DNA of 64,000 bases, from assembly GCA_014687725.1 (NCBI GenBank), contig GCA_014687725.1_4094.1, one strand, 5' to 3'. The stretch's first letter is position 1; every line of letters begins with the position of its first letter. The DNA comes from a phage. Positions 53,729-64,000 of the stretch are shown piece by piece. The notes beneath the pieces are model-generated. The model saw nothing but the letters and a program-made list of their open reading frames with translations, did no database searches and had not been told where the DNA came from. Made by a program: the position numbers and the translations under genes.

Positions 53729-53971
53729 ATGAAAGTACTGACAGAACTAGAAATGTATCATAGATTTAATAAGTACTATCATTTACTTAAGCCTATACAG
53801 AGGATTAAATGTCCATTTGAAGAGAAACAGGTTTTAATCTATGAGCACAAGTTCTTTGTATCATTAGGTACAGATCAACAAGAGTACTATTTGACGTTGT
53901 ACTTGATTACATTAATAGATTTAATTCACTATAAAACCAAACAAGCTAATAAAGAGAAATATGAAAACTAA
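53729..53971 (+). CDS. family-B small protein (29/29)
   Basis: Start moved to MKVLTELEMY; LGTDQQEYYL. Confidence 0.5.
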   Translation: MKVLTELEMYHRFNKYYHLLKPIQRIKCPFEEKQVLIYEHKFFVSLGTDQQEYYLTLYLITLIDLIHYKTKQANKEKYEN

Positions 53972-54305
53972 TATACAACTCAAGGTATATAAATCATTTG
54001 AACATACATATATCAAAAGTAGTCTATGTAGAGATGTAATGGATTACAAGGGTAAGCCATTCACAATTACCTATGATTCTTATGTTAGTGATTTATATAT
54101 ATCATTTGTTAATTACGAAAATAAAATATACAAGCACGTTGATATTAAAGATTTAAGTACTTTATCACCAGAGGAATACTTTCAGGAATCATTAGTATGG
54201 GATTTAGAGTTTCCTATGCCATTAGTACATAAGATGATAGTACTAATGAAAGAATCTAAACAGGAGCCTAATGGTGATTATGAAGAACACACAGTTGAGT
54301 ATTAA
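53961..54305 (+). CDS. family-C protein (EEYFQxSLVxD motif)
   Basis: Motif EEYFQESLVWDLEFP. Confidence 0.55.
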   Translation: MKTNIQLKVYKSFEHTYIKSSLCRDVMDYKGKPFTITYDSYVSDLYISFVNYENKIYKHVDIKDLSTLSPEEYFQESLVWDLEFPMPLVHKMIVLMKESKQEPNGDYEEHTVEY

Positions 54306-54675
54306 AAGTACTGATAATACTAAGAGTTATACAAGCTCAAGTACTGTGACAATCGAAGTGAATTCTATTAATGCTGGTAATGCAGTAGATAAGTTCTTTA
54401 TTGCTCAAGGGTACAGGAAAGATATTCATCAATATTGTTCAGTATATGGGGAGTACAATTCTACTGAAGATATAATTTATTGGTCAACACATCAAGATTA
54501 TATAACTAAAATTGGCGTTCCAGATGTTAGTACTTTATCTGAAGAAGAATACTTTCAGTACAGCTTAGTACATGATGTACCTATACCTTTAGGGTTAATC
54601 AAGGGTATGCAGGAAGAGGTTCATAAGCTTAAATCCATGAGTTCAGGTACTTTCATTAGAACAGTGCAATACTAG
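54280..54675 (+). CDS. family-C protein
   Basis: Motif EEYFQYSLVHDVPIP; start taken at MKNTQL. Confidence 0.5.
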   Translation: MKNTQLSIKSTDNTKSYTSSSTVTIEVNSINAGNAVDKFFIAQGYRKDIHQYCSVYGEYNSTEDIIYWSTHQDYITKIGVPDVSTLSEEEYFQYSLVHDVPIPLGLIKGMQEEVHKLKSMSSGTFIRTVQY

Positions 54676-54734
54676 CTTGACAGTACTTTTCATTACTGAT
54701 ATAGTACACTAACGTTAATCATAGGGTAAAAATT

Positions 54735-54980
54735 ATGTTAAATTTTTTAAATTTCCTTATCGTTTTGTGTATTGTTCTTGGGATTGCACCATTTGTATTG
54801 TATTTCATGGATTCAGATGAAATGCAGAAGATGAATTGCACAAGGACAGGACAGAGTAGAGAAGAGACGATTCTTATGCCTGTTACGGTTATTGTTAACA
54901 ACATGCCCATTACAAACATGGTCCCTACCCTAACGACAACGTACCAGTACTCTTGTGCTGACGGAGAGAGGTGGAGATGA
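54735..54980 (+). CDS. small membrane protein (N-terminal TM helix)
   Basis: Upstream TTGACA/17 nt/TATAGT; hydrophobic N-terminus. Confidence 0.5.
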   Translation: MLNFLNFLIVLCIVLGIAPFVLYFMDSDEMQKMNCTRTGQSREETILMPVTVIVNNMPITNMVPTLTTTYQYSCADGERWR

Positions 54981-55297
54981 AATTTAATATAGCAAAAACA
55001 TCGAGTATATGTATTTTTGGTTATGCAGAAGAGTTAGGTGATATTGACATTCTTTTGTACAAAAAGGATGGTGTTATGCATTTCAAGTACCAGGATGAAG
55101 AGGCAGACAATTATCCTTTACCTAATTTAGTACAAATGCAGGAAGATGAATTATTCCAGTACAGCTTAATATACGACATTGATATTTGCACGATGCCAGT
55201 ACTAATTAGTATTCAAAAAGTGATGCTCGATATGTATGATAAGCTAATACAAGGTACATCAGGGAGAATCATTGAAATCGATATACAAGACAATTAA
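54971..55297 (+). CDS. family-C protein
   Basis: Motif DELFQYSLIYDIDIC. Confidence 0.55.
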   Translation: MEMKFNIAKTSSICIFGYAEELGDIDILLYKKDGVMHFKYQDEEADNYPLPNLVQMQEDELFQYSLIYDIDICTMPVLISIQKVMLDMYDKLIQGTSGRIIEIDIQDN

Positions 55298-55490
55298 TCA
55301 AGAATGGAAGACCCAAAAGTACAGGGAATTCAACAGGAATTTTACAAAAGATGCATTGAATTTAAAAACAACAGAGTTTGATATGTTTATTTTTCTTGGA
55401 ACACGTTCACAAGAACAATTTGTTCATTATTATATAAATTCGTTGCGAACGGAGATAGTATGCAAAACACAGGGTATTATAAAAAGGTAA
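55272..55490 (+). CDS. family-B-like small protein embedded in family-C block
   Basis: FLGTRSQEQFV motif. Confidence 0.5.
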   Translation: MKSIYKTINQEWKTQKYREFNRNFTKDALNLKTTEFDMFIFLGTRSQEQFVHYYINSLRTEIVCKTQGIIKR

Positions 55491-55726
55491 ACCAATATTT
55501 GTACGCTACAAAGTACAGGGATTTTTGTTTAAAGGGTGGTGATGAAGATTTTTCTTTGCGATTATCAGAATTTAATCTGTTATTTTATCTTGGTACAAAA
55601 GAACAAGAAGAAATGGCACAGAAATTTATCAAGCACCTTGTACAAAAAATTAATATGCAAATTTTGATGCTTAAGATACAGAATGAGATAAATGAATATG
55701 AATCCAGAAATAGTTCAGGATCTTAA
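55460..55726 (+). CDS. family-B-like small protein embedded in family-C block
   Basis: YLGTKEQEEMA motif. Confidence 0.5.
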   Translation: MQNTGYYKKVNQYLYATKYRDFCLKGGDEDFSLRLSEFNLLFYLGTKEQEEMAQKFIKHLVQKINMQILMLKIQNEINEYESRNSSGS

Positions 55727-62193: not shown

Positions 62194-62389
62194 TTTTAGA
62201 GATGTTGCTAAGGAGAAGTTCAAGTGCAGTTTAGATTTTGGGTTAAATGATTTTCTGACATGCACAATGTACAGGAATGATGATTATGAGCAATCCGTAA
62301 TTTCGTTGCACAGATATTTCGAAATAATTTACGCAAGATATCTTAGAAGGTTAGAGGGAATAGGGGATTGGAATTATGATTACGTTTGA
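62186..62389 (+). CDS. hypothetical small protein
   Basis: Track ORF. Confidence 0.45.
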   Translation: MNNFRDVAKEKFKCSLDFGLNDFLTCTMYRNDDYEQSVISLHRYFEIIYARYLRRLEGIGDWNYDYV

Positions 62390-62600
62390 AGAGCCGGAAG
62401 TGGCATATTGCTTTAGTGTGAAAGGTTTTGAATTCATGATGGATTCTATTTTGAAGGATACATATTTGGTTCAGATTGCAGTTGCAGATAATACAGATAA
62501 TGCATTACAGCGAGTATTGAATATATACGAGAGGACGAGTCGAAGGCTTTGTGCAATGAAAAGGATTGAAGAAATCAAGGTTTCTAGGCTGAATAAATAG
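62376..62600 (+). CDS. hypothetical small protein
   Basis: Track ORF; overlap with previous. Confidence 0.45.
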   Translation: MITFEEPEVAYCFSVKGFEFMMDSILKDTYLVQIAVADNTDNALQRVLNIYERTSRRLCAMKRIEEIKVSRLNK

Positions 62601-62798
62601 AGACGTTTCATTTTGACAGGCCGCAGGGGGGGGTCAAAAAAATTTCCGCTGAAAAACATGCTAAGGTATATGTTTAATATAAAGTTTTATATTGTGTTTT
62701 TCAGAGTACAGTTCATGTTTCCTGAAACAAAAAATACCCCGCCGCCGAACGTTCTCCTTATATTGGAGTTTACCTTATTAATTATAGTAGAGATTAAG

Positions 62799-63176
62799 AT
62801 GGAAATAAAATATAATGAATTTTGTGCAAGGACATGGATGTACACTGGTGAGTTAGTTACGCACTCTAACTTATACAAGGGTGATTTAAACTACGCTAGG
62901 GACAAGATTTTAAAGTACTGGAATGCTGACTTTTATTTGATGGATTTTAGTACTGGGTTTAGGGGTAAAGCAACCGAGATGTTGGACTATACAGTACTTG
63001 ATGATGCTGCACTGTTTCAGGCGGCATTAGTATTTGATAAGAAGTACATCTGTACATTAGAAGAGATGATTGAATTACAGCGTAGAATTAAATGTATTCA
63101 CAGGGAATGTATAGATATCTGGTGCAGTACTGGTGAAGATGATTTTTGTAATCATTTCAATCTAGGGGAAGTGTGA
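62799..63176 (+). CDS. family-C protein
   Basis: Start moved to MEIKYNEF after GAGATTAAG; track N-terminal extension crosses a G-rich non-coding stretch; motif AALFQAALVFDKKYICT. Confidence 0.5.
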   Translation: MEIKYNEFCARTWMYTGELVTHSNLYKGDLNYARDKILKYWNADFYLMDFSTGFRGKATEMLDYTVLDDAALFQAALVFDKKYICTLEEMIELQRRIKCIHRECIDIWCSTGEDDFCNHFNLGEV

Positions 63177-63333
63177 TGGAATTTGATTTTTTAATATCAG
63201 TACATTCTTTTAAGCACAGTTATCAGTACTTTTGTAATTTAAACAAAGGTGATTTGATTATGGATACAGATACAGAGGCTGTATACAGTTCTAATATTCT
63301 GTACAAATTCAGTACTAATCTGAAGGAGATTTT

Positions 63334-63705
63334 ATGAAAAAAGAAATTAGAATTCAATTCGGTATGAGGAAAAAAGAGGTCATCTGTACACTGAATCATG
63401 CGGTCGTGGAAAGCCTTGGTGGTGCATTACAAAAATTCTCCCATTTTGTTCTTGTACTATATGAAAATGGGTCTTTTAAAATCTTCACATATGATGATTC
63501 AAAAAATTACCGTAATGATTTTGTAAATCTGACAGTACTGTCAGAAGAGGAATTCTTTCAGGAAAGTACTGTCTGGAATTTACCAGGAGCACCAATTGAA
63601 TACGTCCGTGCTACACAGGCAGAAATGATCAAAGTAATGCAGAACTATCCAGAAGATTATATGACTAAGTTTCCTGAATCTATTTATGTAGAGGTTGAGT
63701 ACTGA
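63334..63705 (+). CDS. family-C protein
   Basis: Motif EEEFFQESTVWNLPGAP; flanked by ~75-bp direct repeats. Confidence 0.55.
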   Translation: MKKEIRIQFGMRKKEVICTLNHAVVESLGGALQKFSHFVLVLYENGSFKIFTYDDSKNYRNDFVNLTVLSEEEFFQESTVWNLPGAPIEYVRATQAEMIKVMQNYPEDYMTKFPESIYVEVEY

Positions 63706-63785
63706 TGGAATTTGATTTTTTAATATCAGTACATACTTTCAAGCACAGTTATCAGTACTTTTGTAATTTAAACAAAGGTGATTTA

Positions 63786-64000
63786 ATGCACAGTGCAAAT
63801 GAGTATATTCATTACACTCAGGGTAAATTTACATTCATTGATTACAGTTCATTACAGTATCCACACCAAGATATGCCGGACTATACATTAATGGATACCG
63901 CAGAACTATTCCAAGAATCATTAGTATTTGATAAGAAGTACTTGTGTACATTTGAAGAAGTTATTGCAATACAAAATGAAATGAAAGAGTATGCTGCTTT
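63786..64000 (+). CDS. family-C protein (partial, runs off window end)
   Basis: Motif TAELFQESLVFDKKYLCTF; no stop before window end. Confidence 0.45.
   Translation, partial: MHSANEYIHYTQGKFTFIDYSSLQYPHQDMPDYTLMDTAELFQESLVFDKKYLCTFEEVIAIQNEMKEYAA

Follow-up and report, generated by a model that had tools for sequence, protein, structure and literature searches.

What are the many small genes that fill the last 10 kb of the 64,000-nucleotide phage contig GCA_014687725.1_4094.1 (the whole of this stretch is called the window hereafter), and what might they do for the phage that carries them? A preliminary description, made from the letters alone, had seen in positions 53961-64000 a family of about 20 paralogs with a conserved (E/D)E(Y/F)FQxSL(V/I)xD motif. 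By megablast against a phage collection, this region is 99.0% identical over 100% of the query to Escherichia phage vB_EcoM_G17 (G17), and 93-99% identical to phAPEC6, PBECO4, 121Q and about 20 other Asteriusvirus jumbo phages, where every gene under the match is annotated 'hypothetical protein'. To judge by its sequence, the window derives from an Asteriusvirus (RaK2-like) jumbo coliphage. G17 was used for the sequence past the window end, and 121Q, fEgEco12, phAPEC6, RaK2 and Erwinia phage Hallingskeid for comparison. At the level of sequence, the array is a real, previously undescribed protein family, called here the FQ family, which is under purifying selection.

The evidence for common descent comes from profile searches; pairwise, the paralogs are 10-25% identical in protein. 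Hidden Markov models (HMMs) built on a leave-one-out basis, in which close relatives were removed along with the tested sequence, recover all 14 array members at E 1e-3 to 4e-15. For an independent HMM, the training sequences came mainly from RaK2, metagenomes and distant database entries (a few of the last being divergent Asteriusvirus orthologues), and it recovers 14/14 at E <= 9e-5. A motif-masked HMM, from which 13 motif columns were removed and whose training set was free of G17 sequences, finds 18 G17 open reading frames (ORFs) at E < 0.01, every one of which carries FQ, so that invariance of this dipeptide is not a mere product of ascertainment. The motif is also rare elsewhere: a loose regular expression, FQ..[LT][VIM], matches 13 of the 255 window ORFs of at least 50 aa, 12 of them on the + strand within 53961-63705. 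A stricter one matches 13 array ORFs versus 0.14 expected from 260 residue-shuffled non-array ORFs, and 0.03 are expected outside the array (again 260 shuffled ORFs) when an upstream acidic residue is added. All the motif strings quoted in the preliminary description were found in their ORFs, and the motif-anchored alignment and HMM check it had proposed confirmed 14 array ORFs as homologues. After correction of ORF starts to those preceded by Shine-Dalgarno sequences and matching the G17 annotation, the count for the window is 14 firm members and a probable one, besides a truncated remnant and a member that the window end cuts short:

53961-54305, + strand: family member of 114 aa (short subfamily), SPEEYFQESLVWD; leave-one-out HMM E = 9e-14, independent model E = 1e-16
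54271-54675, + strand: family member of 134 aa, SEEEYFQYSLVHD; leave-one-out HMM E = 4e-15; mostly deleted in 121Q
54977-55297, + strand: family member of 106 aa, QEDELFQYSLIYD; leave-one-out HMM E = 4e-15
56433-56981, + strand: family member of 182 aa (long subfamily), DEAGVFQQSLITK; leave-one-out HMM E = 3e-9
56971-57282, + strand: family member of 103 aa, SDEELFQQQLVID; leave-one-out HMM E = 1e-12
57254-57820, + strand: family member of 188 aa, SEEEFFQGSMLV; leave-one-out HMM E = 1e-7
58127-58633, + strand: family member of 168 aa, TDEWWFQQNLVHD; leave-one-out HMM E = 9e-10
58716-59228, + strand: family member of 170 aa with a GTG start after AGGAG, GEDEYFQYSTVHR; leave-one-out HMM E = 1e-9
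59225-59764, + strand: family member of 179 aa, KEEEYFQMQCIHS; leave-one-out HMM E = 3e-8
59766-60380, + strand: weakest firm member, 204 aa, VDAFMFQLSLVHD; leave-one-out E = 1.2e-3, independent model E = 9e-5
60585-61100, + strand: family member of 171 aa, TEESYFQQSLIYA; leave-one-out HMM E = 4e-6
61097-61441, + strand: probable divergent member of 114 aa, DEAARFQYETAYD (ARFQYETAYD); HMM E = 5e-4 to 2e-3, outside every training set
61452-62003, + strand: family member of 183 aa, SDESLFQYSTMYD; leave-one-out E = 1e-6, motif-masked model E = 9e-7
62799-63176, + strand: family member 'A', 125 aa, DDAALFQAALVFD; motif-masked model E = 8e-16
63176-63337, + strand: remnant ORF B', 53 aa, which duplicates the 5' end of gene B in truncated form
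63334-63705, + strand: family member 'C', 123 aa, SEEEFFQESTVWN; leave-one-out HMM E = 1e-14; the protein modelled with AlphaFold2
63705-64000, + strand: family member 'B', cut at the window end (118 aa in G17), DTAELFQESLVFD; E = 9e-21 for the G17 copy

The array proteins are small (100-205 aa), soluble, hydrophilic and mostly acidic, with a median isoelectric point of 4.8 and a mean net charge of -9.5; 3 of 36 members are neutral or basic. The orthologue of gene A in phAPEC6, gp447c (8822-9199 of the compared phAPEC6 stretch), is annotated 'amidohydrolase 3', a label that looks spurious because neither Pfam nor NCBIfam supports it.

Could the motif merely reflect a DNA element that is repeated, which is what the preliminary description had named as fatal to its proposal, or could the genes be non-functional duplicated filler? 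The tandem arrangement and one recent 85-nt DNA repeat speak for such an explanation. However, the paralogs show no DNA-level similarity save for a few recent pairs, Shine-Dalgarno-like sequences (e.g. AGGAG, GAGGT) precede many array gene starts, and the array has been kept across genera with ~29% average nucleotide identity (ANI) (PMC13070987). Synonymous codons vary freely in the motif, its Phe being encoded by TTT 19 times and TTC 18 times, its Gln by CAG 25 times and CAA 12 times, and its conserved Ser from both the AGY and TCN codon boxes. The ratio of non-synonymous to synonymous substitution rates (dN/dS), pooled over orthologues in 121Q, is 0.40. When the proteins are divided into parts (comparisons with fEgEco12 and 121Q), the ratio is 0.20-0.21 in the motif core, against 0.32-0.34 on its N-terminal and 0.25-0.29 on its C-terminal side. 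Together, free synonymous codons and dN/dS of 0.2-0.4 refute a DNA-repeat artefact for the family as a whole, and we give filler of any kind next to no credence. The proposal of a selected paralog family in a tandem array is thus borne out by the HMMs, codon use and dN/dS.

What, then, has selection kept? Conservation was scored over 151 non-redundant members (filtered at 80% identity) from five phage lineages. Phe is present in 100% and Gln in 99%, the sole exception to the latter being a fragment, and every window member carries this Phe-Gln pair at the motif. Downstream, the figures are 84% for S(+3), 90% for L/T(+4), 92% for V/I/L(+5), 77% for an aromatic residue or His at +6 and 45% for D(+7), while upstream they are 76% for E(-4), 70% for E(-3) and 62% for S/T(-5). 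Two subfamilies, long (~165-205 aa) and short (~100-135 aa), align in profile-profile comparison over 37 columns round the motif (probability 96%, E = 1e-9), and no relatedness between their N-terminal parts was detectable by the same comparison. As alignment is confined to these columns, the conserved unit is a module of ~37 residues, with the consensus h-x-D-h-(S/T)-x-L-(S/T)-E-E-x-(Y/L/F)-F-Q-x-S-(L/T)-(V/I)-aromatic-D and a second helix after it. Some relatives have two FQ motifs per ORF (e.g. SEIITFQYSTSHE and TDELIFQYSTIYD), as at 13128-13619 in the stretch of one relative and 5740-6759 in that of Erwinia phage Hallingskeid, a hint that the module was duplicated within the ORF or fused. 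An invariant Gln next to a frequently acidic EEE stretch might suggest small enzymes that use conserved acidic residues and the Gln in catalysis, and the preliminary description had indeed called for a test of an enzymatic role for invariant E, Q and D residues. This did not hold up, as the sole invariant residues are F and Q; the acidic positions are 70-76% E and would fit N-terminal capping of a helix, no further polar residue is conserved, and the sequence shows no evident motif for a cofactor or nucleotide. An enzymatic family is therefore most improbable.

Structure prediction, another check that had been proposed and was run, gave a model of one short member. For the product of 63334-63705, AlphaFold2 returned a mean predicted local distance difference test (pLDDT) of 68 from a 15-sequence alignment, and of 83.6, with a predicted template modelling score (pTM) of 0.79, from 35 diverse homologues. 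In the model, strands at residues 2-9, 15-19, 38-44, 47-54 and 57-63 and a C-terminal one at 117-122 would make a six-stranded sheet, accompanied by two helices (71-79 and 88-104). The motif is the first of these helices, 71-79 (EEEFFQEST), N-capped by Ser70 and predicted with pLDDT above 90. On our reading of this secondary structure, both helices would pack on one face of the sheet. Since the C-terminal strand is predicted to complete the sheet begun by the N-terminal strands, the two halves of the protein would form a single domain.

This arrangement bears directly on another explanation, namely that E-x-x-(Y/L)-F-Q is a protease site at which a Gln-specific protease cuts every member. The site of the tobacco etch virus (TEV) NIa protease is E-x-x-Y-x-Q|G/S and that of picornaviral 3C proteases LEVLFQ|GP, and the likeness to EE(Y/L)FQ is evident, several members even reading EEGYFQGS: the invariant Q would be P1 and the invariant F P2, the residue at P3 is Y or L in 62% of members, and 76% have E(-4). 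The family fits the consensus of neither protease, however, Y being found at the would-be P3 in only 31%. Unlike in TEV and 3C sites, a bulky residue usually follows the Gln (Y 30%, E 14%, Q 13%, L 11%, N 6%, Gly being rare), and the motif would lie in a confidently modelled helix (pLDDT above 90) of a single predicted domain rather than in an exposed flexible linker. Furthermore, these phages are not known to have a Gln-specific protease, the annotated proteases in the ~150 kb of related genomes that were inspected being ClpP and a T4 gp21-like prohead protease, and FQ proteins are not found in virions. Cleavage at the motif is very unlikely on this evidence.

Neither fold nor sequence leads to anything characterized. 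The same fold was found in BFVD solely in uncharacterised proteins of slurp01, PBECO4 and RaK2, and solved structures yielded no convincing fold match to the family. Searches of Pfam, NCBIfam, PADLOC and PDB sequences with family members gave no meaningful match; the PADLOC models produced four single-member matches only, the best at E = 3.6e-4 to a JAB model, which were treated as noise. When 1.84 billion representative proteins were searched exhaustively by HMM, only 52 hits came back, all small and with LSEEE(Y/L/F)FQxSLVxD, nearly all matches in word-indexed protein searches were Asteriusvirus orthologues, and a degenerate DNA pattern for LSEEE(Y/F)FQxSL(V/I) had no match in IMG/VR. In PHROGs, family members are split over dozens of small groups (phrog_13866, 15629, 12674, 22855 and 9317, and many single-orthologue phrogs), all of 'unknown function', and are not recognised as one superfamily. 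The literature search found no account of the family and no Asteriusvirus or Alcyoneusvirus transcriptome.

How far does the array extend, and how old is it? The expectation that it would continue past the window end proved right. An HMM seeded on window members found 22 more ORFs in 15 kb of G17 past the window, none of which was in the seed, and a later scan of G17 added three array members. In G17, the array occupies record positions 315008-343706 (~29 kb, ~41 members by HMM) and goes on for ~18 kb past the equivalent of the window end, so that 53961-64000 is the first third of a co-directional tandem array. The tandem family is therefore real but the earlier figure of about 20 members needs amending, as there are 15-17 in the window and ~41 in the G17 genome. 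The array of fEgEco12 has 36 members in 27270-48971, and that of RaK2, a Klebsiella phage (Alcyoneusvirus), at least 25, followed by Dam methylase and cytidylyltransferase genes as in G17. Erwinia phage Hallingskeid has 14 HMM hits and ~9 further motif-bearing ORFs in 13.7 kb, and two metagenome contigs have arrays of at least 15 and at least 7 members. Gene order is the same in G17, fEgEco12 and RaK2, with an array of a second family (LGTxxQE), then the FQ array and then Dam methylase/cytidylyltransferase. RaK2-type phages share only ~29% ANI with Asteriusvirus (PMC13070987), and because the array is common to both it must be old.

Within this old array, gene content is fluid. Orthologues in the window lineage and fEgEco12 are 25% to 96% identical, fEgEco12 has extra tandem duplicates (e.g. 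27270 and 27623, 31590 and 31898) and lacks three window genes, 121Q lacks most of 54271-54675, and 56971-57282 is only 72% identical in nucleotides to its 121Q copy whereas neighbouring genes are at 93-98%. The best paralog lies no more than three genes away for 17 of 36 members versus ~6 expected, and it is this nearest-paralog statistic alone that points to local duplication, as genome order and similarity over all pairs show no significant correlation (Spearman -0.06, permutation p = 0.11). Sequence comparison thus depicts a family whose genes are duplicated locally, inserted, deleted and replaced over time. The clearest single event involves the direct repeat that brackets gene C (63334-63705):

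63174-63258, + strand: upstream copy of the direct repeat (85 nt), with which remnant ORF B' opens (28 codons)
63703-63787, + strand: second, downstream copy of the direct repeat, matching the upstream one at 96% and forming the 5' end (first 28 codons) of intact gene B

In fEgEco12, gene A directly adjoins gene B and gene C is missing at the site, and the 529-bp unit made of one repeat copy and gene C is for this reason a lineage-specific insertion or duplication. The preliminary description was right that a direct repeat brackets one member, although its length is 85 nt and not ~75; a recent recombination fits, but the unequal crossing-over that was invoked is only one of several mechanisms that would do so. 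Position 1 of the Sharanji record (OR545507.1) corresponds to window ~63787, the exact end of the second repeat copy, which suggests that this assembly was opened at the repeat and not at a physical end.

Where the array sits in the genome is the next element. The physical ends of fEgEco12, determined by PhageTerm and restriction digests, carry 20,993-bp direct terminal repeats (PMC13070987). Position 1 of fEgEco12, the mapped left end, aligns to window 27043, and the terminal repeat therefore corresponds roughly to window 27043-47520. The window thus spans the junction of a circularly permuted or collapsed-repeat assembly (right end, terminal repeat, arrays). A change in the sign of GC skew and a minus-to-plus switch in gene strand coincide with the mapped left end at ~27043. 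After the terminal repeat come the LGTxxQE array from 47585 and the FQ array from 53961, all genes being on one strand, and the latter array therefore sits just inside the left terminal repeat. In the part of the array within the window, 19 of 27 gene junctions overlap or abut. Of the three larger gaps, two carry σ70-like matches in which the -35 hexamer is perfect and 11/12 positions agree overall:

54677-54705, + strand: σ70-like promoter match TTGACA-17-TATAGT with TG, in a 59-nt intergenic gap; a consensus match only, resembling the terminal-repeat promoter class
58621-58642, + strand: terminator-like hairpin and T-run in an 82-nt gap; a terminator is annotated at the same place in G17
58659-58687, + strand: σ70-like promoter match TTGACA-17-TATCAT with TG, after the hairpin; a consensus match only

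The terminal repeat itself has, within 27400-46100, ~13 intergenic near-consensus TTGACA-N-TGTATAAT σ70 matches with extended -10, 13-56 nt upstream of small genes, i.e. about one per one or two genes, unlike the operon-like arrays downstream. An identical 29-nt element, TTGACTCCGGTCAGTCCCTTTGCTATTAT, recurs there at 40506-40534, 43783-43811 and 46040-46068, with a variant at 36813. It lies in a hairpin, AAAGGGATTGACTCCGGTCAGTCCCTTT, and a terminator-like stem thus overlaps the promoter-like -35/-10, an arrangement reminiscent of promoter-stem-loop elements in T4-type phages. Downstream of the FQ array are genes for a methyltransferase, RNA ligase, polynucleotide kinase, DNA ligase, ClpP, phosphatases, dCMP deaminase, Sir2 and NUDIX proteins.

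Location also bears on the idea that FQ proteins are structural, or packaged as internal or ejected proteins. In its favour, these phages have other paralog families that do associate with the virion, such as the RCC1-like 'DNA condensation' proteins. However, the FQ family corresponds to phAPEC6 gp444c-466c and beyond, and the list of 62 phAPEC6 virion proteins includes none of gp444c-466c and nothing between gp347 and gp549, all gene products between 348 and 548 being missing. As the array lies, in addition, among early-type genes, a virion role can be given very little weight.

What might such a repertoire be for? We tentatively favour, at a little less than an even chance and largely by analogy, a role in early interaction with the host, in which divergent, non-virion FQ proteins would serve host take-over or counter-defence. 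Speaking for it are the position of the array beside the terminal repeat, its mostly overlapping genes and two near-consensus promoter matches, the nucleic-acid enzymes encoded downstream, the absence of its products from the phAPEC6 virion list, their acidity and the turnover of the family. In this scheme, array genes would be early or delayed-early, with host RNA polymerase transcribing them from the terminal-repeat-bearing genome end. Their products would form a diversified binding repertoire, with the FQ helix-helix module as a conserved scaffold and possibly a shared contact, while targets would differ from one paralog to the next through the divergent N-terminal sheet and loops. A specific shared contact is suggested by the invariance of the Gln.

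Several known systems offer parallels. The MGF110/360/505 multigene families of African swine fever virus (ASFV) and the host-range families of poxviruses are terminal, tandem sets of divergent, non-structural paralogs with birth-and-death turnover. The FQ array resembles them in being tandem, divergent, non-structural, near a genome end and variable between strains, but it has no sequence or fold relationship to them, the host is bacterial, and any role in host range or immune evasion would be only inferred. The T5 pre-early genes, in the terminal repeat, and the SPO1 host-takeover module are early clusters of unrelated genes. Like them, the array has many small co-directional unannotated genes by a long terminal repeat, with strong σ70-type promoter matches nearby; unlike them, it is one 40-member family that lies just inside the repeat and whose expression would presumably be early. 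SUKH/Imm immunity arrays are tandem sets of small, acidic and highly divergent α+β proteins with few conserved residues, a description that would suit the FQ array, which however lies in an early-type region of a phage and has no adjacent toxin genes. No FQ member hit Pfam immunity models at E <= 1 beyond noise, and scanned neighbours had no Pfam match and are annotated as hypothetical. No sequence or fold similarity of FQ proteins to the known DNA mimics Ocr, ArdA and Arn was found.

A number of points weigh against an early host-interaction repertoire. Timing and function are argued only from position and analogy, and total counts of σ70-like and terminator-like matches are no higher than in shuffled controls, so that only the intergenic near-consensus σ70 sites are suggestive of promoters. 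An arms-race repertoire might be expected to show positive selection, of which pooled dN/dS gives no sign, and PADLOC, Pfam, NCBIfam and fold searches returned no meaningful match for the family. A fold common to whole proteins is predicted for the short subfamily only, long and short members aligning over ~37 columns. Finally, an invariant Gln would be unusual for a purely structural helix, and the module may have a specific shared activity.

The last points are also those on which a different scheme can be built, in which FQ proteins are adaptors whose module docks ~40 recognition domains to one machine, e.g. phage ClpP with host ClpX or ClpA, by a logic analogous to that of F-box or SOCS-box proteins. 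A polar Q and an F that are strictly invariant across 151 otherwise hypervariable sequences would be expected of a docking element, as would subfamily homology confined to the ~37-column module with N-terminal parts not detectably related. A ClpP subunit is moreover encoded on the same strand ~25 kb downstream of the array (G17_00461, at 6121-6816 of the compared G17 stretch). Conversely, the motif is modelled in a helix with pLDDT above 90 and is not obviously a free peptide, and, to our knowledge, none of the known docking motifs for ClpX, ClpA and ClpP resembles it. No Clp ATPase was seen in the genome stretches inspected. An adaptor repertoire is thus unlikely, though less so than the other alternatives discussed above, and its strongest form, in which the FQ helix would be a universal docking element plugging ~40 target-binding domains into one phage or host machine such as a ClpP-based one, is decidedly doubtful. 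If true, it would mean F-box-like modular removal or rewiring of many host proteins, defence included, right after infection.

Is the family restricted to the array? The preliminary description had listed an outlier copy far from it:

7625-8287, + strand: possible remote relative of 220 aa, SSDLMFQYSLIHKD, at the opposite (right) physical end of the genome

The motif is present as described and, in a 44%-identical homologue (motif LSDEQIFQYSLIHDD), the FQYSLIH.DIE.Y block is invariant. By hhalign, this ORF matches the FQ family with a probability of 84-87% and E about 5e-6 over 17-36 columns, an extent similar to the 37-column link between the accepted long and short subfamilies. Also in favour of membership, the independent model gives it E = 1.2e-3 and the chance probability of its regular-expression match is 0.03-0.13. 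Against membership, the leave-one-out HMM gives it E = 2.7, the motif-masked model finds no signal in it, its composition is strongly biased and it lies at the other physical end of the genome. Dismissal as a chance motif match (E = 2.7, P = 0.13) was considered and is softened by the hhalign result and the conserved block. On sequence grounds, we lean towards a plausible remote relative, membership in the family not being established.

The array is interspersed with ORFs that do not belong to the family (54735-54980, 55692-56084, 57807-58148, 60382-60576 and 62186-62600). They are real genes as judged from a pooled dN/dS of 0.32, had no hits in a Pfam search, and one of them (54735-54980) looks hydrophobic and may encode a membrane protein. 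Other tandem families are found elsewhere in the window. The LGTxxQE family (~70 aa), which starts at the inner edge of the terminal repeat, has 30 window copies in 47585-53971 and 55272-55726 and two more within the FQ array of G17; RaK2 and the metagenome contigs have this family too, and it gave no Pfam hit. Plus-strand positions 22985-26779 hold 13 tandem ORFs of ~60 aa that form one family by all-against-all phmmer clustering, again with no Pfam hit. On the minus strand, 8268-22471 holds 14 tandem paralogs, mostly of ~300-440 aa, with RCC1-like repeats (Pfam WD40_RLD/RCC1, below gathering score). In phAPEC6, gp003-010, gp549 and gp551, at both ends of the map, are of similar size, annotated 'DNA condensation protein' and detected in virions. 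From size, position and annotation rather than alignment, the RCC1-like paralogs are inferred to be orthologous to them.

Lineage-specific expansion in jumbo phages is already known as a phenomenon, and it is the FQ family that is new. In Bacillus phage G, a ~35-copy zinc-ribbon expansion was called unprecedented (Iyer et al. 2021, PMC7824862), ~10% of RaK2 proteins are paralogues (PMC3622015), and the CBB genome paper reports 22 paralogs and treats paralogy in general terms only; the FQ family is not described in PMC7824862 or PMC3622015. As with the zinc ribbons, one small domain has been expanded to tens of copies in one jumbo-phage lineage. The differences are that the FQ family is an unannotated α/β fold with an FQ helix in ~41 copies, and that its array is common to at least three groups of jumbo phages instead of being found in one phage.

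What the finding means is first a matter of scale. The array, at ~29 kb, takes up about 8% of the G17 record and is among the largest paralog expansions seen in cultured phage. In RaK2-like jumbo phages, where ~80% of genes are 'hypothetical', ~40 are now placed in one ancient family, conserved in phages of E. coli, Salmonella, Klebsiella and Erwinia and diagnosed by an invariant Phe-Gln. These phages are candidates for therapy, and one family with one invariant dipeptide offers a tractable handle on the accessory regions of their genomes.

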